Positions 12,017 to 44,663 of a stretch of DNA of 64,000 bases are shown here, piece by piece (the stretch's first letter is position 1; the number at the start of each line of letters is the position of its first letter). The position numbers and the translations under genes were made by a program. The notes below the pieces were generated by a model. The model was not told where the DNA came from and did no database searches. It worked only from the letters and a program-made list of their open reading frames with translations. Source of the DNA: Escherichia coli (lineage in GTDB: Bacteria > Pseudomonadota > Gammaproteobacteria > Enterobacterales > Enterobacteriaceae); the NCBI RefSeq assembly GCF_013122565.1, contig NZ_CP053258.1; one strand, written 5' to 3'.

Positions 12017-12868
12017 TTAACCCGCGTAAGCTGCCAGCATTTCCTGCGCCGCCAGTTTACCCAACGCATTCGCTGCGAAAGGACTGTCGCCGGTGAGAAC
12101 TTTACGGTCCTTATGTACTCGCCCGGTGATGTCGTCATTAATAATGTTCATGCCCATTTTCTTCAGCTCTTCGCCGAAGTACCAGGTGAGATGACCCGGC
12201 ATATAGCCTATCTCTGGCGTTTGTTTGTCTGCGGCGTCTGGGAATGCGCAAATGGAATAACCATTCAGTGGGTTATCGCCGTGGCGAAGCGCCAGAAAAG
12301 CCGCCGGGCCGTGGCAAAGGGAGATAACAAAACGGTCATTTTTGATTGCCCACTGTAAAGCGGCAGCTACGTCCTGGCTTTCAGGTAAACCAATAAGTGC
12401 GCCATGACCACCAGGAACAAAGATTGCTGCATATTCGCTGTCTGCGTTGAGGCTGGCGACAACATCCGCGAGTTTCTTCGGATTGCGGAACAACGATTTA
12501 TGCTGCTCAAAGAATGGCATTACTTTTTCATCTTTGTGCGGCATAGCCCAGTATTCAAACTTGGTCATCAGACCGGAAATGGTCGCCACTTCGAATTCGA
12601 AACCTGCAGCATGGAGATGATACAACGGCAGCAACGTTTCAATCGGATGGTTACCGGTCGAGAACAGTTTTCCGTTATCGGTCGGCAAATAACGTTCGTC
12701 CGCGGCGATCACCAGAATTTTATGTTTACCGCGATACGGTTTTGGATAGTCCACGCCATCAAGATCAGAGACAGGACTGGTATATTGGCTAAGCGAATAT
12801 TCTGAAGGGAAGAATGCATTATCTTCAGCAATATCGACCTGCGGGTTTTTACTTGTTTGAACAGTCAT
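12017..12868 (-). CDS. hchA: Hsp31 glyoxalase / protein deglycase HchA
   Basis: 283-aa ORF MTVQTSKNPQVDIAEDNAFFPSEYSLSQYTSP...; DJ-1/PfpI-type catalytic Cys context (ISLCHGP). Confidence 0.9.
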   Translation of the reverse strand: MTVQTSKNPQVDIAEDNAFFPSEYSLSQYTSPVSDLDGVDYPKPYRGKHKILVIAADERYLPTDNGKLFSTGNHPIETLLPLYHLHAAGFEFEVATISGLMTKFEYWAMPHKDEKVMPFFEQHKSLFRNPKKLADVVASLNADSEYAAIFVPGGHGALIGLPESQDVAAALQWAIKNDRFVISLCHGPAAFLALRHGDNPLNGYSICAFPDAADKQTPEIGYMPGHLTWYFGEELKKMGMNIINDDITGRVHKDRKVLTGDSPFAANALGKLAAQEMLAAYAG

Positions 12869-13380: not shown

Positions 13381-13416
13381 AAAAAAGCCTGAGTTCGATG
13401 AGGGACGAACTCAGGC
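13381..13416 (-). terminator. Rho-independent terminator downstream of yedS
   Basis: Hairpin GCCTGAGTTCG...CGAACTCAGGC (13387..13416) followed on the minus strand by a U-run (A-run 13381..13386 on plus). Confidence 0.55.
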
Positions 13417-13459
13417 TAGTGTTAAGTTTTACAGTAACACGCCGCAGCGAGTTGGCTGA

Positions 13460-14647
13460 TTAGAACTGGTAGACTAAGCCCACAGCAACGATATCATCGG
13501 TAGCGATGCCGTTTTCTTTGTAGAAGTCGTCGTCGTTGTCCAGCAGGTTGATTTTGTAATCAACATAGGTGGACATGTTTTTGTTGAAGTAGTAGGTCAT
13601 ACCAATATCAACATATTTAACCAGATCTTTGTTGGTGTAGTGATGATTACCCTGGCTGTCGAAGTTATCACTATTTACACCGCCTAAATCCTTACCTTTA
13701 GATTGCAGGTAAGCGATGGACGGGCGCAGGCCGAAGTCGAACTGATACTGAGCAACAACTTCAAAGTTTTGGGTTTTGTTAGCAATGGCATCAGCATCAC
13801 CGTAACCAGTCATGTTACGGGTTTCAGCATACATAGCTGCTAAGTAAACGTTATTAGCGTCGTATTTAGCACCAACGGTCCATGCTTCTGCTGTTTCACC
13901 GCCAGCAGTTGCATCGAAGCGATCTCCATAACGGGTGTTATGAGTATCTTTGTGAACCTGGTTATCGGTACGGTCAGAGTTAGAATAAGCAGCCCCCAGA
14001 CTTAAACCGAAGTCGAAGTCATAGGAAGTGGACATACCGAAGCCGTCACCGTTCTCTTTAGCTAACTTACGTCCATTACCGTTACCAGATCCTTCCTGAC
14101 CGAACGCTCCACTACCTTCATTATTACCCTGATATTGCAGAGCAAAGTTCAGGCCATCAACCTGACCGAAGAAGCCATTGTTACGGTAGGTTGCAACACC
14201 ATTGGTACGACCGTTCATGAAGTTGTCAGCACCAGCATAGGTATCGCCACCAAATTCTGGCAGCATATCGGTCCATGCTTCTACGTCATATACGACACCG
14301 TAGTTACGACCATAGTCGAAAGTACCATTCTGGCCAAAGCCTAAACCTGCAAATGCCAGACGCGTTGCGGTATTACCTTTGTCACTTTCAGGACCGTTTG
14401 CGCCAATGTTAAATTCCCACTGACCGTAACCAGTGAATTGGTCAGCGATCTGAGTTTCACCTTTGAAACCGATACGGGCATATGACATGTCGCCATCGCT
14501 GCCAGAATCATCAGAGAAGTAGTGCAGGCCCGCTACTTTTCCGTACAAATCCAGTTTATTACCATCTTTATTATAGACTTCAGCCGCATTTGCTGCGCCA
14601 GCAACTAATAACGCCGGGACCAGCATTGCCAGAACTTTTCTTTTCAT
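13460..14647 (-). CDS. yedS: Outer membrane porin YedS (OmpC/OmpF family), apparently intact
   Basis: Uninterrupted ORF 13460..14677; start set at ATG 14647 ([21 protein letters not shown] signal peptide); C-terminal ...VGLVYQF porin signature. Confidence 0.85.
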
Positions 14648-14958
14648 TATGTATTCCCTTGTGATTATAATCTTCATGAATATATCAATAAGTGCCGTTA
14701 TCCAAAAAAAAGCACATTTGGATACTATTCTATGAAGTTCATTTTATTTTAAGAATTACATGTAACAAATGTATTTAAAAGATTTCAAAATGTTTCCAAT
14801 CTATTTAATATAATTCAGAATTATGAATTCTAAATATAAGCATTCATGAAAATTATAGCTGTATATCAATAATTTATGAGTTAACCGGAAAAATAGGTAT
14901 TGTCAATGATTGTTGCGCCAAACGGCAGGTGTGATCACGCGCACATTAATGAAGACAT

Positions 14959-15050
14959 AAAAAAAAGCCGGCATCATGCCGGCCCAAAAAATATAAACAA
15001 GACGATAAAAGGCTAATAACAGGGTTATCATGACATAGAAATCAAAAAAG
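14959..15050 (-). ncRNA. rseX: Candidate small RNA, possibly RseX
   Basis: Minus-strand terminator: GCCGGC-ATCAT-GCCGGC hairpin (14967..14983) followed by an 8-10 nt U-run. RseX is recalled to lie between yedR and yedS. The 5' end is estimated from the recalled ~91 nt length, not seen. Confidence 0.3.
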
Positions 15051-15213
15051 GTATAATTGTATTCAGTGCTAATATATTGTTTAGGTGAATTAATAAAACC
15101 ATTACCAAAGATATAAATAAATCTTTATTGCTGATTTTCCGGTAATTATTGCAGTTGCGCAAAATTTATCTATTTGTTCAAAAAATGATTGAGTCTTGAC
15201 TGGCTCATCCAAT

Positions 15214-15579: not shown

Positions 15580-15618
15580 AAACTGCTAAGGTTGCGACTC
15601 TTTGGCAACGGAGCGCGT

Positions 15619-16314
15619 ATGGACTTACAACACTGGCAGGCAGAGTTCGAAAACTGGTTGAAAAACCATCATCAGCACCAGGACGCGGCCCATGACGTGT
15701 GTCATTTTCGCCGCGTCTGGGCTACGGCACAGAAGCTGGCGGCAGATGATGATGTCGATATGCTGGTGATTTTAACCGCCTGTTATTTTCACGATATTGT
15801 GAGCCTGGCGAAAAATCATCCGCAGCGGCAGCGTTCTTCAATCCTGGCGGCAGAAGAGACGCGTCGCCTGCTCCGTGAAGAGTTCGTGCAATTTCCGGCG
15901 GAGAAAATTGAGGCCGTTTGTCATGCCATTGCCGCTCACAGTTTCAGCGCGCAAATCGCCCCCTTAACCACGGAAGCTAAAATTGTCCAGGATGCGGATC
16001 GGCTGGAAGCCCTGGGGGCGATTGGCCTGGTGCGCGTGTTTGCCGTTTCAGGGGCATTGGGCGTGGCGCTGTTTGATGGCGAAGATCCGTTCGCACAGTA
16101 TCGCCCGCTTGATGATAAACGCTACGCGCTGGATCATTTCCAGACTAAGTTGCTGAAGCTACCGCAAACCATGCAAACCGTAAGAGGCAAGCAGCTGGCG
16201 CAGCACAACGCGCAATTTTTAGTCGAGTTTATGGCGAAGCTCAGTGCCGAACTGGCGGGGGAGAATGAAGGTGTCGATCACAAGGTGATAGATGCGTTTT
16301 CACCCGCGGGCTGA
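15619..16314 (+). CDS. yedJ: HD-domain phosphohydrolase YedJ (231 aa)
   Basis: ORF 15592..16314 contains [22 protein letters not shown]...; start set at ATG 15619. Confidence 0.85.
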
Positions 16315-16380
16315 GCGCGTGGCCCTAAATGGCTGTAATTATGTTAACCTGTCGACCATCTCAGATGGCCGGTTAAATCT

Positions 16381-17799
16381 ATGCAGGAAAATATATCAGT
16401 AACCGATTCATACAGCACCGGGAATGCCGCACAGGCAATGCTGGAGAAACTGCTGCAAATTTATGATGTTAAAACGCTGGTGGCGCAGCTTAATGGTGTG
16501 GGTGAGAATCACTGGAGCGCGGCAATTTTAAAACGTGCACTGGCGAATGACTCGGCATGGCACCGTTTAAGTGAGAAAGAGTTCGCCCATCTGCAAACGT
16601 TATTACCCAAACCACCGGCACATCATCCGCATTATGCGTTTCGCTTTATCGATCTATTCGCCGGAATTGGCGGCATCCGTCGCGGTTTTGAATCGATTGG
16701 CGGACAGTGCGTGTTTACCAGCGAATGGAACAAACATGCGGTACGCACTTATAAAGCCAACCATTATTGCGACCCGGCGACGCATCATTTTAATGAAGAT
16801 ATCCGCGACATCACCCTCAGCCATAAAGAAGGCGTGAGTGATGAGGCGGCGGTGGAACATATTCGTCAACACATTCCTGAACACGATGTTTTACTGGCCG
16901 GTTTCCCTTGTCAGCCATTTTCGCTGGCTGGCGTATCGAAAAAGAACTCGCTCGGGCGGGCGCACGGTTTTGCCTGCGATACTCAGGGCACGTTGTTCTT
17001 TGATGTGGTGCGCATTATCGACGCGCGTCGTCCGGCGATGTTTGTGCTCGAAAACGTCAAAAACCTGAAAAGCCACGACCAGGGTAAAACGTTCCGCATC
17101 ATCATGCAGACGCTGGACGAACTGGGCTATGACGTGGCTGATGCAGAAGATAACGGGCCGGACGATCCGAAAATCATCGACGGCAAACATTTCCTGCCGC
17201 AGCACCGTGAACGCATCGTGCTGGTGGGTTTTCGTCGCGATCTGAATCTGAAAGCCGATTTTACTCTGCGTGATATCAACGGATGTTTCCCTGCGCAGCG
17301 AGTGACGCTGGCGCAGCTGTTGGACCCGATGGTCGAGGCGAAATATATCCTGACGCCGGTACTGTGGAAGTACCTCTATCGATATGCGAAAAAACATCAG
17401 GCGCGCGGTAACGGCTTCGGTTATGGAATGGTTTATCCGAACAATCCGCAAAGCGTCACCCGTACGCTGTCTGCGCGTTATTACAAAGATGGCGCGGAAA
17501 TTTTAATCGATCGCGGATGGGATATGGCCACGGGTGAAAAAGACTTTGACGATCCGCTGAATCAGCAACATCGTCCACGTCGGTTAACGCCTCGAGAATG
17601 CGCGCGCTTAATGGGTTTTGAAGCGCCGGGAGAAGCGAAATTCCGCATTCCGGTTTCGGACACTCAGGCCTATCGCCAGTTCGGTAACTCGGTGGTCGTG
17701 CCGGTCTTTGCCGCGGTGGCAAAACTGCTTGAGCCAAAAATCAAACAGGCGGTGGCGTTGCGTCAGCAAGAGGCACAACATGGTCGACGTTCACGATAA
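16381..17799 (+). CDS. dcm: DNA-cytosine methyltransferase Dcm
   Basis: 472-aa ORF with C5-MTase motifs [14 protein letters not shown] and ENV. Confidence 0.93.
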
Positions 17800-23451: not shown

Positions 23452-23538
23452 AACACATCAGATTTCCTGGTGTAACGAATTTTTTAAGTGCTTCTTGCTT
23501 AAGCAAGTTTCATCCCGACCTCCTCAGGGTCGGGATTT
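23452..23538 (+). ncRNA. dsrA: DsrA small regulatory RNA
   Basis: 87-nt AACACATCAGATTTCCTGGTGTAACGAATTTTTTAAGTGCTTCTTGCTTAAGCAAGTTTCATCCCGACC(T)CCTCAGGGTCGGGATTT, with terminal hairpin and U-run. Confidence 0.9.
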
Positions 23539-36066: not shown

Positions 36067-36456
36067 GTTGTGTAACCTGTTGTTAATTACATCCGATCTC
36101 ACAGCGTGGGGCATGGATGGGGCAAACTCACTCTATTTCTGGTTTAAAATGGATACCTGATCATGAACGTTTTCTGCCATCCACGCTCCGTAACGCGATA
36201 ACCCCCTGAATATCAGAGTGTCTCATTTGACACATCACCACGTCGGATGTTGTTACGACCACAGACGCAACAGTAACCTCTGGATAATTTAATCTTTGTT
36301 GATGTTTTTATTCATATTCCGGGCTAGGGAAATAATCAGGCATAATTGTGTCACTGGAATAGAGGTTTCTTGTGGCGCATGTGGAAGGAGCGTCTACTAT
36401 TGTCTAATAGAGATTTCTTATTACGCAGTTTTGTTCATCACTAATCTCCAGGTTTA

Positions 36457-37125
36457 TCAAACAGGTTGAATTAACTCCGCGCCCTGGTTTTTAACATTAC
36501 CCACCGCGCGCGATACCGGGTGCCAGGTGAACTGGTTTGCTGACACACAACCACTGGTAGCGATTTCTGAGGCTTCTTTACCGCCAATATCTTGCCGCAT
36601 CCATTCCCGCGCAGCTTCTGGCGACAGAACCAGAGGGCGGCGGTCATGAATATCTACCAGACCCTGGTCTGCTGCTGCAGTGACGATCAAAAATCCTTCG
36701 GCTTCGTCACCACGCTCGAACGGTGTGCTACCTATCGCGGCCATAAAAATAGGTTGTCCATCAGCACGATAGATAAAAAAAGGCTGTTTTTTGTCGCCTT
36801 CTTTTTTCCACTCAAACCAGCCATCGGCAAAACAGATTGCCCGACCATGTTGCCAGAGCGGCTTAAACATGCGACTGGTTGCGGCAGTTTCTACGCGGGC
36901 GTTAATCAGCGGCGGTTTATCCCACCATCCGGGAGCATATCCCCAGAAAACCGGATCCAGATGAAGGTGTTCGTCACGTTCACTGAGCAGAAGGACTTTG
37001 GTTCCCGGCGCGACGTTGTATCTGCCAATGGGTTCGGGATCATAGGGAATATCGCGTTCAATATCTTCCGCGAGAAGCGCAAGGTAATCTTCACGCGTTT
37101 GGGATTGGGCAAAGCGTCCACACAT
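36457..37125 (-). CDS. yedK: SOS-response-associated peptidase (SRAP) YedK, abasic-site processing protein (222 aa)
   Basis: ORF 36457..37218 contains MCGRFAQSQTREDYLALL... with the SRAP N-terminal Cys2; start set at ATG 37125. Confidence 0.88.
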   Translation of the reverse strand: MCGRFAQSQTREDYLALLAEDIERDIPYDPEPIGRYNVAPGTKVLLLSERDEHLHLDPVFWGYAPGWWDKPPLINARVETAATSRMFKPLWQHGRAICFADGWFEWKKEGDKKQPFFIYRADGQPIFMAAIGSTPFERGDEAEGFLIVTAAADQGLVDIHDRRPLVLSPEAAREWMRQDIGGKEASEIATSGCVSANQFTWHPVSRAVGNVKNQGAELIQPV

Positions 37126-37233
37126 AGAAACCTCCTGAGAGCACACTGAAAAGAATAGGAGAGGGGGCGGGTAAAATCTATGTGGTACAGAGGCAACGAT
37201 ATTCCCGCTGTGGGCCACAGCGGGAATGAGGGA

Positions 37234-37467
37234 TTACTTCTGAATTAAATAACGAATGGTCGGCCCGTCTTGCTGAATATCCAGCACCGTATAGCCGTGA
37301 TTACGCGCATCCAGTGGAATATTATTGATCGACTGCGGACAGTCGCTCACCACTTCCAGGATTTCCCCTTTTTTTAACTGCGGCATCGCCTCAAGAGTTG
37401 CGACTGCCGGATAAGGGCAGGGTTCACCCACCATATCAAGGCGGTAATCAGGAACGATATTTTTCAT
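37234..37467 (-). CDS. yedF: TusA-like sulfur-carrier protein YedF
   Basis: 77-aa ORF with CPYP motif (MVGEPCPYPAVATLEAM); start overlaps yedE stop. Confidence 0.88.
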   Translation of the reverse strand: MKNIVPDYRLDMVGEPCPYPAVATLEAMPQLKKGEILEVVSDCPQSINNIPLDARNHGYTVLDIQQDGPTIRYLIQK

Positions 37468-38669
37468 GCGATCTCCTTAGCAGTCTGCGGTGCCGCACGG
37501 CGGAAGAAGCGTTTTTCCCAGCCGATAATCAACATCAGCGCAGCAAACAACAGCAAATATGTCACCAGCAGGCCACCCATCGGGCCAAAGGTTTTCAGCA
37601 GGTTAATTTTGTCCCAGTCGGTGGCCAGCGCCGGAGCGAAATCATCCCAGTAATACGCCAGAATCGTTGAGCCGATCACGTTGCCCAGACCGACCCACCA
37701 GTAGTGCACCTGGCCTTCTACCGCGCGGTACATCCAGCCGGTTTCGCAGCCGCCTGCCAGCACGATGCCAAAACCAAACAGTAAACCACCAATTACCGCG
37801 TTTGGTCCTGCCCACATGATTTTGGGTTCAACACCTAACTGTACGTAACTGAAGATCCCGATGGCACTCACCGCCATACCGATAATGATTGCTTTCGCCA
37901 TATGGGTACGTCCGGTGATCCACATATCGCGGAACGCCGAAGTAAAGCAGATTTGCGCACGTTCAATCAGTAAACCAAAGCCGACGCCAAACAGCATTGC
38001 CAGCCCCAGTTTTGGTTGGTTCATCGCCGTGAGCAGCGCCCAGCCCTGCATACCGAAAAAGACCAGCATCCCGAGACGAAAACGACGCCGCGCCTGATCC
38101 GGTTTTTGCGTCAGCGGTGAGGCGGCAGAAACTTTCTGCATTTTCACGGGAATACGGAAGATGGGCAGCAGGGTAAAGCGCGCGCCAAACCATGAACCAA
38201 TGGCAGTGGCGATGGCAAAGAACCAGGCATGCAGCGAGAACTGAGGAATACCGGTAAAGAACGCCGCCAGGTTACAGCCCATTGCCAGACGCGCGCCAAA
38301 ACCAGCGATAATACCGCCAATGATGGCCTGCATAATGCGGATACGGCTGCGTGGCATGCGCAGTTTGACATTGTTGGCCCACAGCGCTGCGGCAAAGCAG
38401 CCGCCAAACATACCGAGGATCATCATCCCGTCGATGCGGGTTAATGGCGATCCTTCCAGATGGATAATTTTAAAGTAACCCCACTCTTCAGCATGGACGC
38501 CGAACAGCTGCAGGAGCTGGCCGCCCCAACGGGTAAATTCACCCGTGACAGCCCAAAAGGTGCCAGTGATGCCAAAATAGTAAGTGGAGAGAATACCCGC
38601 CGCGATGACCGCGGGGATGGGCGCCCAGAATTTAATCAACCAGGCGTGTTTGAATTGCTGCCATGACAT
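37464..38669 (-). CDS. yedE: YedE family inner membrane transporter (putative selenium/thiosulfate uptake)
   Basis: 401-aa polytopic membrane ORF MSWQQFKHAWLIKFWAPIPAVIAAGILSTYYFG... Confidence 0.88.
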   Translation of the reverse strand: MSWQQFKHAWLIKFWAPIPAVIAAGILSTYYFGITGTFWAVTGEFTRWGGQLLQLFGVHAEEWGYFKIIHLEGSPLTRIDGMMILGMFGGCFAAALWANNVKLRMPRSRIRIMQAIIGGIIAGFGARLAMGCNLAAFFTGIPQFSLHAWFFAIATAIGSWFGARFTLLPIFRIPVKMQKVSAASPLTQKPDQARRRFRLGMLVFFGMQGWALLTAMNQPKLGLAMLFGVGFGLLIERAQICFTSAFRDMWITGRTHMAKAIIIGMAVSAIGIFSYVQLGVEPKIMWAGPNAVIGGLLFGFGIVLAGGCETGWMYRAVEGQVHYWWVGLGNVIGSTILAYYWDDFAPALATDWDKINLLKTFGPMGGLLVTYLLLFAALMLIIGWEKRFFRRAAPQTAKEIA

Positions 38670-38855
38670 GAATGTAGCCTCTGAACTCAGAAGGTTTGAA
38701 ACAAGAGTCGCGAATCATACATCAAGCAAATTTATTTTCGGGGTAATAATTCACAAAAATAATAGTTAGATCAAATTTCTCGCTGAACCTGGAAAGGCTG
38801 GCGACATCAGGGCTTTAATGCCACAATCCTCTTTTCTTCTCATGCAGGACGAATG

Positions 38856-39269
38856 ATGAAAAAACTCGCAATTGCAGGCGCGCTCATGTTGCTGGCGGGC
38901 TGTGCCGAAGTCGAAAACTATAACAATGTCGTGAAAACCCCCGCGCCGGACTGGCTGGCGGGCTACTGGCAGACCAAAGGGCCGCAACGTGCGCTGGTCA
39001 GTCCGGAAGCGATAGGCAGCCTGATTGTCACTAAAGCGGGCGATACCCTGGATTGCCGTCAGTGGCAGCGGGTGATTGCCGTGCCGGGTAAGTTGACATT
39101 GATGTCTGATGATCTCACTAACGTTACCGTAAAACGTGAGCTGTACGAGGTTGAGCGTGACGGTAACACCATTGAGTACGATGGTATGACGATGGAGCGT
39201 GTGGATCGCCCGACAGCAGAGTGTGCCGCCGCGCTGGATAAAGCGCCGTTACCGACGCCACTGCCGTAA
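38856..39269 (+). CDS. yedD: Lipoprotein YedD (137 aa)
   Basis: ORF 38853..39269 begins MMKKLAIAGALMLLAGC (lipobox LAGC); second ATG chosen. Confidence 0.85.
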   Translation: MKKLAIAGALMLLAGCAEVENYNNVVKTPAPDWLAGYWQTKGPQRALVSPEAIGSLIVTKAGDTLDCRQWQRVIAVPGKLTLMSDDLTNVTVKRELYEVERDGNTIEYDGMTMERVDRPTAECAAALDKAPLPTPLP

Positions 39270-39302
39270 TGAAATCTCCCCGGCTTGCTGCCGGGGATGA
39301 AT

Positions 39303-40790
39303 TTAAATCACCTCTTCGATAACCCACACGCTAACGCTGCCGCCGTTGCAAAAGAAGGTCGCTTCGCCGTTTTCGTCGGTTACTACACTCTCTTGCCGGT
39401 TCCCAAGAAAATCACGCCAGGTTTTATTGCCGTAATTCTCTCCTAAATGAATGGTTTTTTCGCCATCATCTCCGTTCGACATGACCACCACGCAGCCGGG
39501 ATATTCGTCGGTGCCACTGCGGCTAAAGGCAATGCAGTTCGGATGGTCGAAAAATAACGTCTGTACACCGTGGGCGAAACGCTGACGGGCGAGAATTAAC
39601 TCATCAAGTTGTTCGATTATTGGCATATCTATCGGATAGGTTTGCCCGTCACCGCCGACATCTTCGTAATGTGCACCGTAGAGATCCGGATAGAACACCG
39701 AAGGAACGCCATTTTCCCGCAACAAAATTAAGGCATATGCCAGCGGTTTAAACCACGGTTCGACCGGCGCTTCGAGGGCTTGCAACGGTTGGGTGTCGTG
39801 GTTGGCAACGAGCGTCACGGCGTGGAAAGGATCGGCTTCCACTAATGTACCCGTGAAAATCTGCGTCATGTCGTAGTCGCGCCCCATGCGCGATGCTTCA
39901 TGGAATTTCATCTGCAGCGGTGCATCGAACAGCATGGTTTTGCCTTCCACCTGATCAATATACGTTTGCAGTTTATCGACTTCATGCGACCAGTACTCTG
40001 CCACAATAAACAGCGGCTTTGGCGCAACTTCCTGTACGTGTTCGATCCACTCTTTATAAAACCACGCCGGTATATGTTTGACCGCATCAAGACGAAAACC
40101 GTCGCATTGTGTTTGTTCCATCACCCAGCGCGCCCAGTATTTAATCTCTTCCGTCACGGCATGATTGCGGAAATCGATATTCTCACCCATCAGATAATCG
40201 AAATTACCGAGTTCATCATCAACCTGATCGTTCCAGCCTTCGCCGGTGTAGTCGTTAACAATTTTAAATATGCCATCTTCATCAGGATTTTCGATATGGT
40301 CGATACCGCTAAAACATTTGAAATCCCAGATAAACTGCGAGTATTGCCCGGCACGAGCGGGGAAGGTGTAACGCGTCCAGCCTTCGCACTCAATGATTTC
40401 TTCGTCAATTTGCGTACGGTCATCAGCATTTACACGCTGCACGCGAATAGCTTCTTTTTCATCCGCGCCCATTTTGTGGTTGACTACCACATCCAACAGC
40501 ACCGCAATGTCATTACGTTTCAGAGCGTCAATGGCGGCCAGCAGTTGTGCTTTATCGCCATATTTAGTAGGGATGCTGCCTTTCTGATCAAACTCGCCTA
40601 AATCAAATAAATCATAGGAGTCGTAGCCGACCGAATACCCGCCCGATGCGCCTTTATAGGCGGGCGGCAACCAGACCATATTGATACCAATATCATTAAA
40701 ACCGTCGGCGCGCTCGGCCAGTTCAGGCCAGAGCTTACCGCCTTCCGGGTAATACCAGTGAAAACATTGTAACAGCGTGGGATTACGCAT
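39303..40790 (-). CDS. amyA: Cytoplasmic alpha-amylase AmyA
   Basis: 495-aa [50 protein letters not shown]...; GH13 motifs. Confidence 0.92.
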
Positions 40791-40867
40791 TCTTCGACTC
40801 CATTCAAGGGGAACATTAGAAGCGTAGCCGTAATCAGATTATTCGCGAGCCATTAGCTCGTTAAGAT

Positions 40868-41233
40868 TCACGAGAAGTTATCTTGCGGAGCCAGCACAAA
40901 GCCGCCCTGATCGCCATAGGCACTTAACACCGATTTTTGCACCGATGACTGACCGACCAGTTTCGCCAGTTCATTCATCCGAATCTGTAATAACTGCTTT
41001 ACCTTGCTTTCGTTATCGAGAATCAGGCGCAGCATCGGGCGGAGCTGCTCCTGCATCGTGGTGGACGGGTCAATCTCATCAGTCAGATGTGCAATCTCCT
41101 GCACCGCATTCACATACGCCATTTCGCTGGCGATGAGTTCGTCCCATTGTTCTTCCGTTGCCAGGCGTAACATGAGCTGGCTTTTTTCGACGAGTTGTTG
41201 CCAGGCGAAATACAAATGCGGTGCGTGGTTCAT
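40868..41233 (-). CDS. fliT: Flagellar export chaperone FliT
   Basis: 121-aa [36 protein letters not shown]... Confidence 0.9.
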
Positions 41234-41643
41234 CAGACTGGGTCCTGAATCAAAGAAGGGGAGAGTAACGACTCTTTCCAGGCATCGGCAATATTGCGCA
41301 TTAATGCTTCCACTTCTTCGACTGCGGAGACATCGTTGCGTAAATTGGCTTGCAGCAAACGCCTGACCATATAGCTATAAAGAGCAATCAAGTTTTGGGT
41401 TAATTCGTCTTTGCTCTCTTCATCAAGACTCACCCGAAGTCCGTTCTCAATGATGTTGATCGCTTTTGACAAAGAGACGCCTTTGCCTTGCTGATTGTTG
41501 TCCTGCATAAACAGGCGCGCTCTAACCAGTGCGCTCAGCACTCCATCAAATAGCATGGTGACCAGCTGCTGCTGGCTGGCGCTCATTACGGCGCTTTCGA
41601 CGCCAATTTGTGCATAGGCCTGGGTGCCTTTTGCCGCGTACAT
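41233..41643 (-). CDS. fliS: Flagellin-specific export chaperone FliS
   Basis: 136-aa [37 protein letters not shown]... Confidence 0.9.
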
Positions 41644-41658
41644 AGTTTCTCCTGAAGA

Positions 41659-43074
41659 TTATTTCGAGTTGCTATTTGAGGTGTCGAACTGCTGTGTCAG
41701 ATAGCTACTGGTGGAGTTAAGCGAGTTCATTAACACATCTAATTGGGTGAACTGGGCTTTATAGCGCGTCATTAAGGTATCGATACGCTCACTGGCTGCG
41801 TTGTACTGGTCGGTCAAATTATTAAGCGTTTTGCTGACGCCATCTTTTGCGGCCTGGATTATCCCGGTGGAAGAGAGCCAACTGGTCAGGTTGCTACTAA
41901 TGCCGGTGGTTACCCCTGTACTTTTACCGTCACCTATAAACATTTCACCGATGCCAGCGGCATCTTTTTTTAGCGCCGTTTGCAGTTTGTCAGTCGCGAT
42001 TTCCAGCTTGCCGGTACTGGCATCGCTGGTAATGCCAATCTGTGCCAGCGTTTTATAGTTTGAACTGCTGTGAGTATTGGCGAGCAAGGTTTTAAGCTGA
42101 GTCTGGATGGTACGCAGTGTGGAGTCACCGAGTAATGCGCCATTACTGGAGTCCTGACTTTCTGCTCCGGCATCGACAGCGGTGTATTTGGTTAAGCTAC
42201 TGAATGTATCCTGCAATGTGTTATAGGCATCCACCCATGCTTTGACCGCATTTTCAGCTTTGGATGTGTCTTTATTGATGGTCAGTGTCTGATTACCGGT
42301 GGTGACGTCATTCAGGTTGAGTGTGATATCTTCCAGCGCGTCGCTGATAGTGTTACTGCTGTTTTCAATCTCAACGTTATTGACTGTCAGTTTGGCGTTT
42401 TGCGCGGTGACGCTTTCAATCATGCCATTGCTGCTATCACCCGACGTTCCGTTGTAACCCATAAAACTTTCCAGGGCGCTGTCGCCGCTGACGCTAAGTT
42501 TCATAGCGTTATCGTTGCCCGTATCGTTAGCGGTGATGGACAGACGATATTCGCCGTTTCTCACATTGATGATACTGGCGCTGACACCAGCTTTGGCGTT
42601 GTTAATGGCATCGCGAATGCCGGAAAGTGACGAGTTAGCTGCGCTGATATCAATCGTGACCGGATCTTTACCGCCGCCTTGCTGGATGGTCAGTACGCTA
42701 TCGCTGGTGGCGATGGCAGCTTTACTGTCTTTTTGACTAATTTTTGTGGTCAGCGTTTGTGCCTGCGCCAGTTGGCTAACGCTAATGGTGTATTTCCCGG
42801 CAATCGCGCTGCCCGTGGTGGTGGCGCTGAAAGCCGATGAACTGCTGGTGGTTGAAGTGGCGGTAAATAAATCGGCTTTATTCAGTGCTGTGTTGGCTGT
42901 CTGGAAACTCTCTAGTGCACTTTTCAGCGTCCCGTAGGCGCTCAGTTTCGCGGTGTAAGAGCTTTGCTGTTTTGATATCGGCGTCAGGGTAGATTTTTCT
43001 GCCGCCTCCAGACTGTCAAGGATGCTGCTTAAATCCAGCCCCGACCCAACCCCAAGCGTTGAAATACTAGCCAT
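41659..43074 (-). CDS. fliD: Flagellar filament cap protein FliD
   Basis: 471-aa ORF MASISTLGVGSGLDLSSILDSLEAAEKS...; conserved termini, variable centre. Confidence 0.9.
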   Translation of the reverse strand: MASISTLGVGSGLDLSSILDSLEAAEKSTLTPISKQQSSYTAKLSAYGTLKSALESFQTANTALNKADLFTATSTTSSSSAFSATTTGSAIAGKYTISVSQLAQAQTLTTKISQKDSKAAIATSDSVLTIQQGGGKDPVTIDISAANSSLSGIRDAINNAKAGVSASIINVRNGEYRLSITANDTGNDNAMKLSVSGDSALESFMGYNGTSGDSSNGMIESVTAQNAKLTVNNVEIENSSNTISDALEDITLNLNDVTTGNQTLTINKDTSKAENAVKAWVDAYNTLQDTFSSLTKYTAVDAGAESQDSSNGALLGDSTLRTIQTQLKTLLANTHSSSNYKTLAQIGITSDASTGKLEIATDKLQTALKKDAAGIGEMFIGDGKSTGVTTGISSNLTSWLSSTGIIQAAKDGVSKTLNNLTDQYNAASERIDTLMTRYKAQFTQLDVLMNSLNSTSSYLTQQFDTSNSNSK

Positions 43075-43116
43075 ATAAATTCCTTAATCATGCGACGTAT
43101 AGAACGAATACCGGGG

Positions 43117-43143
43117 TTATCGGCGTAAGCGGGGCAAAGTTTA
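43117..43143 (-). promoter_or_regulatory. Sigma-28 (FliA) class 3 promoter for fliDST
   Basis: Minus strand reads TAAACTTT-N11-GCCGATAA, matching the sigma-28 consensus TAAAGTTT-N11-GCCGATAA. Confidence 0.55.
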
Positions 43144-43216
43144 CGATTTATTTTTTGGCTTAATGACACGAACAGCAACGAGGAAGGGGAGTATTTCGAC
43201 CGCTAGAAAAAAATTC

Positions 43217-43243
43217 TAAAGGTTGTGAGTGACCAGACGATAA
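43217..43243 (+). promoter_or_regulatory. Sigma-28 (FliA) class 3 promoter for fliC
   Basis: TAAAGGTT-N11-GACGATAA on the plus strand, about 75 bp upstream of the fliC ATG. Confidence 0.55.
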
Positions 43244-43319
43244 CAGGGTTGACGGCGACGAAGCCGAAGGGTGGAAGCCCAATACTTAAACCGTAGACTT
43301 GAAAACAGGAAAATGAATC

Positions 43320-44663
43320 ATGGCACAAGTCATTAATACCAACAGCCTCTCGCTGATCACTCAGAACAACATCAACAAAAACCAGTCTGCGCTGTCGACT
43401 TCTATCGAGCGCCTCTCTTCTGGTCTGCGCATTAACAGCGCTAAAGATGACGCTGCGGGCCAGGCGATTGCTAACCGCTTCACTTCTAACATCAAAGGTC
43501 TGACTCAGGCCGCACGTAACGCCAACGACGGTATCTCTCTGGCGCAGACCACTGAAGGCGCACTGTCTGAAATCAACAACAACTTGCAGCGTGTTCGTGA
43601 ACTGACCGTTCAGGCCACTACCGGTACTAACTCTGATTCTGACCTGTCTTCAATCCAGGACGAAATCAAATCCCGTCTCGATGAAATTGACCGCGTATCC
43701 GGTCAGACTCAGTTCAACGGCGTGAACGTACTGGCAAAAGATGGCTCGATGAAAATTCAGGTCGGTGCAAATGATGGTCAGACAATCAGCATTGATTTGC
43801 AGAAGATTGATTCTTCTACTTTAGGGTTAAATGGTTTTTCTGTTTCCAAAAATGCAGTATCTGTTGGTGATGCTATTACTCAATTGCCTGGCGAGACGGC
43901 AGCCGATGCACCAGTAACCATCAAGTTTGATGATTCAGTAAAAACTGATTTAAAACTGACCGATGCTTCAGGGTTAAGTCTGCATAACCTCAAAGATGAA
44001 AATGGTAATTTAACTAACCAGTATGTTGTACAGAATGGCGGAAAATCTTACGCTGCTACAGTCGCTGCCAATGGTAATGTTACGCTGAACAAAGCAAATG
44101 TAACCTACAGCGATGTCGCAAACGGTATTGATACCGCAACGCAGTCAGGCCAGTTAGTTCAGGTTGGTGCAGATTCTACCGGTACGCCAAAAGCATTCGT
44201 GTCTGTCCAAGGTAAAAGCTTTGGCATTGATGACGCCGCCTTGAAGAATAACACTGGTGATGCTACCGCTACTCCACCGGGAGCATCTGGGACAACAGTT
44301 GTCGCAGCGTCAATTCATCTGAGTACGGGCAAAAACTCTGTAGACGCTGATGTAACGGCTTCCACTGAATTCACAGGTGCTTCAACCAACGATCCACTGA
44401 CTCTGCTGGACAAAGCTATCGCATCTGTTGATAAATTCCGTTCTTCTTTGGGGGCGGTACAGAACCGTCTGAGCTCCGCTGTAACCAACCTGAACAACAC
44501 CACCACCAACCTGTCTGAAGCGCAGTCCCGTATTCAGGACGCCGACTATGCGACCGAAGTGTCCAACATGTCGAAAGCGCAGATTATCCAGCAGGCAGGT
44601 AACTCCGTGCTGTCCAAAGCTAACCAGGTACCGCAGCAGGTTCTGTCTCTGCTGCAGGGTTAA
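43320..44663 (+). CDS. fliC: Flagellin FliC (447 aa; H-antigen type not determined)
   Basis: MAQVINTNSLSLITQNNINKNQSALSTSIERLSSGLRINSAKDDAAGQAIANRF... conserved N- and C-termini (ends ...QVLSLLQG) flanking a divergent central domain. Confidence 0.93.
   Translation: MAQVINTNSLSLITQNNINKNQSALSTSIERLSSGLRINSAKDDAAGQAIANRFTSNIKGLTQAARNANDGISLAQTTEGALSEINNNLQRVRELTVQATTGTNSDSDLSSIQDEIKSRLDEIDRVSGQTQFNGVNVLAKDGSMKIQVGANDGQTISIDLQKIDSSTLGLNGFSVSKNAVSVGDAITQLPGETAADAPVTIKFDDSVKTDLKLTDASGLSLHNLKDENGNLTNQYVVQNGGKSYAATVAANGNVTLNKANVTYSDVANGIDTATQSGQLVQVGADSTGTPKAFVSVQGKSFGIDDAALKNNTGDATATPPGASGTTVVAASIHLSTGKNSVDADVTASTEFTGASTNDPLTLLDKAIASVDKFRSSLGAVQNRLSSAVTNLNNTTTNLSEAQSRIQDADYATEVSNMSKAQIIQQAGNSVLSKANQVPQQVLSLLQG

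Follow-up and report, generated by a model that had tools for sequence, protein, structure and literature searches.

An intact gene for the OmpC-like porin YedS is the usual state in Escherichia coli, with K-12 as the exception

The yedS gene is intact in the stretch of Escherichia coli DNA analysed here, 64,000 nucleotides of contig NZ_CP053258.1 (assembly GCF_013122565.1; hereafter the window), as it is in most E. coli, K-12 being the exception. The finding is correct, and it is ordinary, because an undamaged yedS is usual in E. coli and has already been described. Like most E. coli, the strain retains a spare OmpC-like porin that was lost by K-12, which leaves current understanding unchanged. 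We consider it quite probable that yedS encodes an OmpC-like diffusion porin which is functional, though normally silenced, with its variable loops facing outward. This explanation rests on the intact reading frame, the protein family, the yedS locus, the pore-lining residues, purifying selection and the conserved upstream region. The coordinates of the features discussed below are collected in Table 1.

Table 1. Features of the yedS locus, and a second small RNA gene, with positions numbered along the window
Feature	Position	Strand	Basis and remarks
hchA	12017..12868	minus	ORF list; downstream neighbour of yedS
yedS intrinsic terminator hairpin	13386..13417	minus	Terminator scan; 12-bp stem with 7 G-C pairs, 8-nt loop, then TTTTTATT
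yedS coding sequence	13460..14647	minus	Intact ORF; 395 codons plus TAA, 1188 nt
yedS signal peptide region	14585..14647	minus	Read from sequence; 21 residues, predicted cleavage before AEVYNK
AT-rich yedS regulatory region	14648..14959	minus	Composition profile and 15-locus alignment; 312 bp from rseX terminator to start
Shine-Dalgarno-like AAGGGA	14655..14660	minus	7 nt upstream of ATG 14647; invariant in 15/15 aligned loci
Candidate sigma-70 promoter	14741..14768	minus	Consensus scan, 9/12 matches; putative
Four tandem phased 10-bp units, GAAACATTTT GAAATCTTTT AAATACATTT GTTACATGTA	14757..14796	minus	Read from sequence
rseX sRNA gene	14960..15049	minus	Rfam RF01401, 94.1 bits (gathering score 50); directly upstream of yedS
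rseX terminator	14985..14965	minus	Terminator scan; described as strong
DsrA sRNA gene	23452..23538	plus	Rfam, 100.2 bits; position expected from K-12

Re-translation of yedS from the ATG at 14647 gave no stop codon and no frameshift up to the C-terminal end GLVYQF, and an open frame of 395 codons is too long for chance to explain it. The frame in the ORF list extends over 13460..14677 on the minus strand. Starting at the alternative ATG at 14677, as in some older annotations (the 405-aa entries), would place 10 extra residues before the signal peptide; the RefSeq start and the 1188-nt length of yedS in the closest complete genome are the same as in our reading from 14647. Residues 1-21 line up with the signal peptide of OmpC, whose cleavage context is identical, while the mature chains of solved porins begin to align at residues 21-22 of YedS. 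The terminator-like hairpin starts 42 nt past the stop codon and is followed by a run of T. The initial annotation, which had described an uninterrupted frame of about 395 codons running from a signal peptide to a C-terminal aromatic porin signature, and a terminator belonging to the gene itself, was thus borne out at its exact coordinates, with both protein ends aligned to those of OmpC.

It had also described yedS of K-12 as a disrupted pseudogene, and the alignment located the damage. The annotation of the K-12 gene (b4496, formerly split into yedS_1/2/3) gives a pseudogene, 'frameshifted; internal stop', and two lesions were located in it: near nt 663 one nucleotide is deleted, and at codon 162 CAG has become TAG (FFG-stop-VDG, against FFGQVDG in the window). 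The aligned window gene has neither the codon 162 stop nor the nt 663 deletion. Both findings that would have spoken against the initial annotation, an interrupted frame here and an intact gene in K-12, are thus absent. Both genes lie in the same orientation at the same locus, between hchA and rseX-drpB. Their signal peptides are identical and just two amino-acid changes separate them in the first 161 codons; in the loop-coding parts, three indels of 9, 24 and 9 nt, all in frame, also set them apart. In total, 1046 positions are identical in an alignment of 1212 columns, and nucleotide identity over 1.9 kb (the gene with its flanks) is 89.2%.

How common an intact yedS is was assessed from a megablast ranking of 5,432 records (5,426 complete genomes), listed at even steps. 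We opened the loci of 14 evenly spaced ranking rows, of the best match and of one K-12 derivative. The gene is intact at this locus in 13 of the 14 evenly spaced complete E. coli genomes, the exception being NZRM3614, in which it is frameshifted; in AHM8C212RI, a further row of the ranking outside these 14, it is interrupted by an IS2 insertion. The initial annotation had drawn from the intact copy that this strain could express an extra OmpC/OmpF-family porin; the intactness stood, and it is no special property of this strain, being the state of the majority. The databases give the same picture. NCBI already lists the exact YedS protein of the window (WP_171459248.1 / QJU23837.1) under the name 'porin OmpC', and its cluster at 90% identity has 1201 members, including Escherichia albertii. 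The best 120 database relatives are all full-length (395-405 aa) and come from E. coli and Shigella; their names include 'outer membrane protein yedS' and, for E. coli KTE142, 'outer membrane protein S1'.

A functional YedS with a role in carbapenem susceptibility was reportedly found in a clinical E. coli isolate by Warner et al. (2013, Antimicrob Agents Chemother 57:1935). The YedS of that isolate is reportedly intact in a non-K-12 background, as it is in the window. Relevance of the intact gene to permeability and antibiotics, proposed in the initial annotation, has a published counterpart: two citing papers connect an intact, expressible yedS of a non-K-12 strain with the entry of carbapenems and with marR/MarA/MicF as a pathway (PMC4048246, PMC11267920), and one of them names an active yedS together with marR inactivation as a mode of carbapenem resistance (PMC4048246, citing Warner 2013). 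The loss of yedS in K-12 has to be borne in mind when results obtained with K-12, be they on permeability, on carbapenem resistance caused by porin loss or on phage receptors, are carried over to natural isolates.

By its sequence, YedS belongs with OmpC, OmpF and PhoE to the general diffusion porins. Residues 27-395 match Pfam PF00267 (Porin_1) over all of profile positions 1-337/337, hence full-length, with an E-value of 1.5e-141 and 472.2 bits (cut-off 23.7). The protein passes the NCBIfam model 'porin OmpC' (NF007841; 544.9 bits against a cut-off of 484), which is a subfamily model and not an equivalog, and it stays below the cut-offs of both the OmpF and the PhoE equivalog models of NCBIfam. 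About 50 solved enterobacterial porins match it over the full mature length, the best being OmpK37 of Klebsiella pneumoniae (PDB 6v78, E-value 5.9e-147), followed by OmpK36 and OmpC. This match, a comparison of sequences with solved structures, is decisive for the fold assigned to YedS, which is collinear with 16-stranded porins across the whole mature chain. An AlphaFold2 model, computed from a 17-sequence alignment, had modest to low confidence (pLDDT 60.5, pTM 0.62), because the alignment was shallow; in this low-confidence model DSSP delimited 17 strand elements, following one another as expected with loops between them, and the low-confidence segments coincide with loops L1-L7. The beta-barrel prediction that the initial annotation had proposed as a check thus came out in favour of a porin barrel through the collinearity, with strands of low confidence in the model.

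The alignments suggested alongside it, with OmpC-family porins and with K-12 yedS, revealed OmpC-like hallmarks and homology to yedS over the whole gene. The OmpC residues K16, R37, R74, R124, D105, E109 and D113, which we take from the established OmpC structure to form the constriction, correspond to K37, R58, R96, R147, D127, E131 and D135 of the YedS precursor in the alignment with K-12 OmpC, and the L3 motif PEFGGD is kept. YedS has its porin fold, L3 PEFGGD, basic ladder and C-terminal YQF in common with OmpK37 and with OmpC/OmpK36 (2j1n, 6rd3). It differs from OmpC in length, the precursors having 395 and 367 aa, respectively, with longer L4, L5 and L7 loops in YedS.

For the expression of yedS, its silencing, its regulators and the substrates transported, we infer the following course. 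YedS would join OmpC and OmpF as a third general diffusion porin of the OmpC-like kind, and would correspond in E. coli to OmpS1, a quiescent porin. Its precursor would be exported via Sec and cleaved after AANA, and the BAM machinery would recognise the C-terminal YQF and insert the protein into the outer membrane, where it is predicted to fold as a trimer of 16-stranded beta-barrels. The pore would be narrowed by L3 (PEFGGD) opposite the conserved Lys/Arg ladder, and small hydrophilic solutes, including beta-lactams and carbapenems, could cross through it. Loops L4-L7, long and allele-specific, would be within reach of phages, colicins and antibodies. In ordinary culture the gene would probably be held nearly silent by its upstream region, which is very AT-rich and of the H-NS type, and it would be turned on only under particular conditions; it would matter most upon loss of OmpC or OmpF.

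The proposed counterpart in Salmonella, OmpS1, is an OmpC-like quiescent porin of low expression, which is silenced by H-NS and StpA, derepressed by LeuO and dependent on OmpR (PMC4264507). OmpS1 is equated with YedS by name, in the literature and in databases; one such listing is 'yedS (ompS1)', in a study in which yedS expression fell 2.5-fold on sigmaE induction (PMC2731931). The AT-rich, conserved region upstream of yedS fits the OmpS1-type pattern, and it also fits the silencing by H-NS of the neighbouring rseX, which in K-12 is seen only in hns mutants (PMC8313858).

The GC content of the upstream region drops to 21-29%. Across the 15 aligned loci, the approximately 150 bp before yedS are nearly invariant over the allele classes, while the coding parts differ by up to 40%; this promoter-proximal block is far more conserved than the coding sequence and has no strain-specific lesion. 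The candidate promoter (-35 TTGTTA at 14768..14763, a 16-nt spacer, and -10 TAAAAT at 14746..14741) falls inside the block, and its -10 would predict a transcription start near 14734. The four 10-bp units overlap the candidate -35, are conserved across alleles, and could possibly form an OmpR-type binding array. OmpR sites in this region, to which the initial annotation had pointed, could not be told from chance by simple consensus comparison. With the ompC C1 and ompF F1 sites as references (positions verified in K-12), the best upstream 20-mer agreed with C1 at 13/20 positions, a score reached by 879/2000 shuffles, and the best agreement with F1 was 12/20, reached by 1855/2000. OmpR boxes were rejected as evidence, shuffled sequences often scoring as high.

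A search of the promoter region (14648..14959) for the high-affinity H-NS motif TCGATAAATT with at most one mismatch found no match; one match lies upstream of rseX, at 15163..15172. Pairing of MicF nt 1-33 with yedS positions -90..+30 was predicted at -7.7 kcal/mol, weaker than with shuffles (-11.6 +/- 2.8), whereas the ompF positive control gave -27.1 kcal/mol (z = -5.5). The reported control of yedS by MicF may be indirect, or may involve pairing outside the start region. Duplex prediction for RseX with yedS was likewise no better than for shuffles. The shuffles in the pairing and OmpR tests were mononucleotide. Full-length sRNA duplexes with yedS were long and unrealistic, and were set aside as uninformative. 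Expression and regulation of yedS in the window strain are therefore what we infer, the sequence tests having confirmed none of the regulators.

Selection on the protein is clearer. When the window gene was compared with five alleles of 87-98% amino-acid identity, dN/dS was 0.02-0.06 in barrel codons and 0.12-0.32 in loop codons. The low barrel values indicate that yedS is kept by selection and is not decaying. With a standard set of optimal codons for E. coli, their fraction in yedS comes to 0.74, which tops the 29 window ORFs that are 250 aa or longer (median 0.55) and approaches the 0.80 of ompF. These values bear on the possibility that the frame is intact and the gene nevertheless functionally dead, a silent relic or one with an inactive promoter, and without effect on permeability. 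Such a state would agree with native expression at the K-12 locus being hard to detect, and with the separate inactivations noted above: the stop and frameshift of K-12, the frameshift of NZRM3614 and the IS2 insertion of AHM8C212RI. The gene has thus been inactivated independently several times, and its loss is tolerated. A dead gene is nonetheless improbable here: the barrel dN/dS and the strong codon bias point to ongoing selection on the protein, the promoter-proximal block is nearly the same as that of other strains and bears no lesion of its own, and nearly all sampled genomes have kept the gene intact.

At the yedS locus (window against loci L002-L018), proteins of 352-404 aa share 60-98% identity with that of the window, and the indels are confined to surface loops. 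Loop dN/dS is 5-10 times barrel dN/dS, and dS between allele classes is saturated, while in flanking genes it is about 0.05-0.06 against K-12. The window allele is itself rare, its best match among the 5,426 complete genomes having 96.2% nucleotide identity; the protein of this best match is 98% identical, with 8 substitutions, five of them in surface loops. Divergence of this kind behind an almost invariant promoter-proximal block points to selection over a long time, diversifying or balancing, or else to recombination, in either case confined to the coding part. There is a slim chance that the locus is a long-lived balanced polymorphism, its allele classes, up to 40% apart in protein sequence and 50 residues apart in loop length, sharing one nearly invariant promoter region. 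If this is true, the rare window allele could have a phage, colicin or antibiotic-uptake phenotype of its own, which lies outside the published studies.

Carried further, the same observations could mean that YedS is selected mainly for what it presents at the cell surface, whether as an adhesin or as a target of phages, colicins, contact-dependent toxins or antibodies. The divergent alleles would then persist because selection on their loops is diversifying or frequency-dependent, and solute diffusion would be secondary. The spread of length and identity at one locus, with indels in loops only, the excess of loop over barrel dN/dS and the saturated interclass dS speak for this, as does the strong immunogenicity reported for Salmonella OmpS1 (PMC4264507). 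We hold it to be very unlikely as the main role, since loop dN/dS is still below 1 and YedS is not known to act as a receptor; in addition, it is compatible with the explanation that we prefer, a functional and normally silenced porin.

The identity of the gene follows from its surroundings. The order hchA / yedS / rseX / drpB / yedJ / dcm is common to the window and K-12, with yedS transcribed towards hchA, and with drpB, yedJ and dcm on the plus strand beyond rseX. The window is collinear with K-12 from 2,048,146 to 1,983,000 at 97.6-98.1% identity. In K-12, yedS is at 2.034 Mb, and ompC is 277 kb away, at 2.31 Mb beside micF and rcsD, neither of which adjoins the porin gene of the window. 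Since this neighbourhood is that of K-12 yedS, the gene is yedS, as the initial annotation had named it, and not ompC. The yedS query matches a median of 3 places per E. coli genome, so that other porin loci exist alongside. That this is simply the OmpC of the strain and no additional porin, as the RefSeq/PGAP name 'porin OmpC' of YedS and its relatives and the passing of the NF007841 cut-off might suggest, is hardly credible, given that this model carries no equivalog assignment, that the locus is the hchA-rseX-drpB one at 2.034 Mb and not the micF/rcsD one, that matching places are several per genome, and that identity to K-12 OmpC is just 67% at the protein level. The product name arises from the subfamily-level NCBIfam model, and the labelling of yedS as 'ompC' by automatic annotation is a warning for users of annotations.

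Several further observations concern the neighbourhood. The first approximately 30 nt of rseX occur as two E. coli haplotypes, that of the window and loci L002, L005 and L010 as against the K-12 type, and the 3' approximately 60 nt are nearly invariant. Frameshifts in drpB are annotated in JE86-ST05 (L002 2621..2903) and NZRM3614 (L006 1..203); DrpB of the window is intact and identical to the K-12 protein. At 36333..36400 of the window, about 66 bp take the place of K-12 2,010,546-2,012,431, a segment containing yedL, the yedN pseudogene and the edge of the intG remnant. The region around fliC (36400..43838) has merely 91% identity to K-12, and the central part of fliC (43838..44384) is without a match to K-12 fliC, so that the flagellin (H antigen) type differs. 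For yedJ-dcm (15592..17799), the top identity among the complete E. coli genomes of the collection is 98.8%, against 96.2% for yedS, and the lineage of the window seems to be sparsely sampled among complete genomes.
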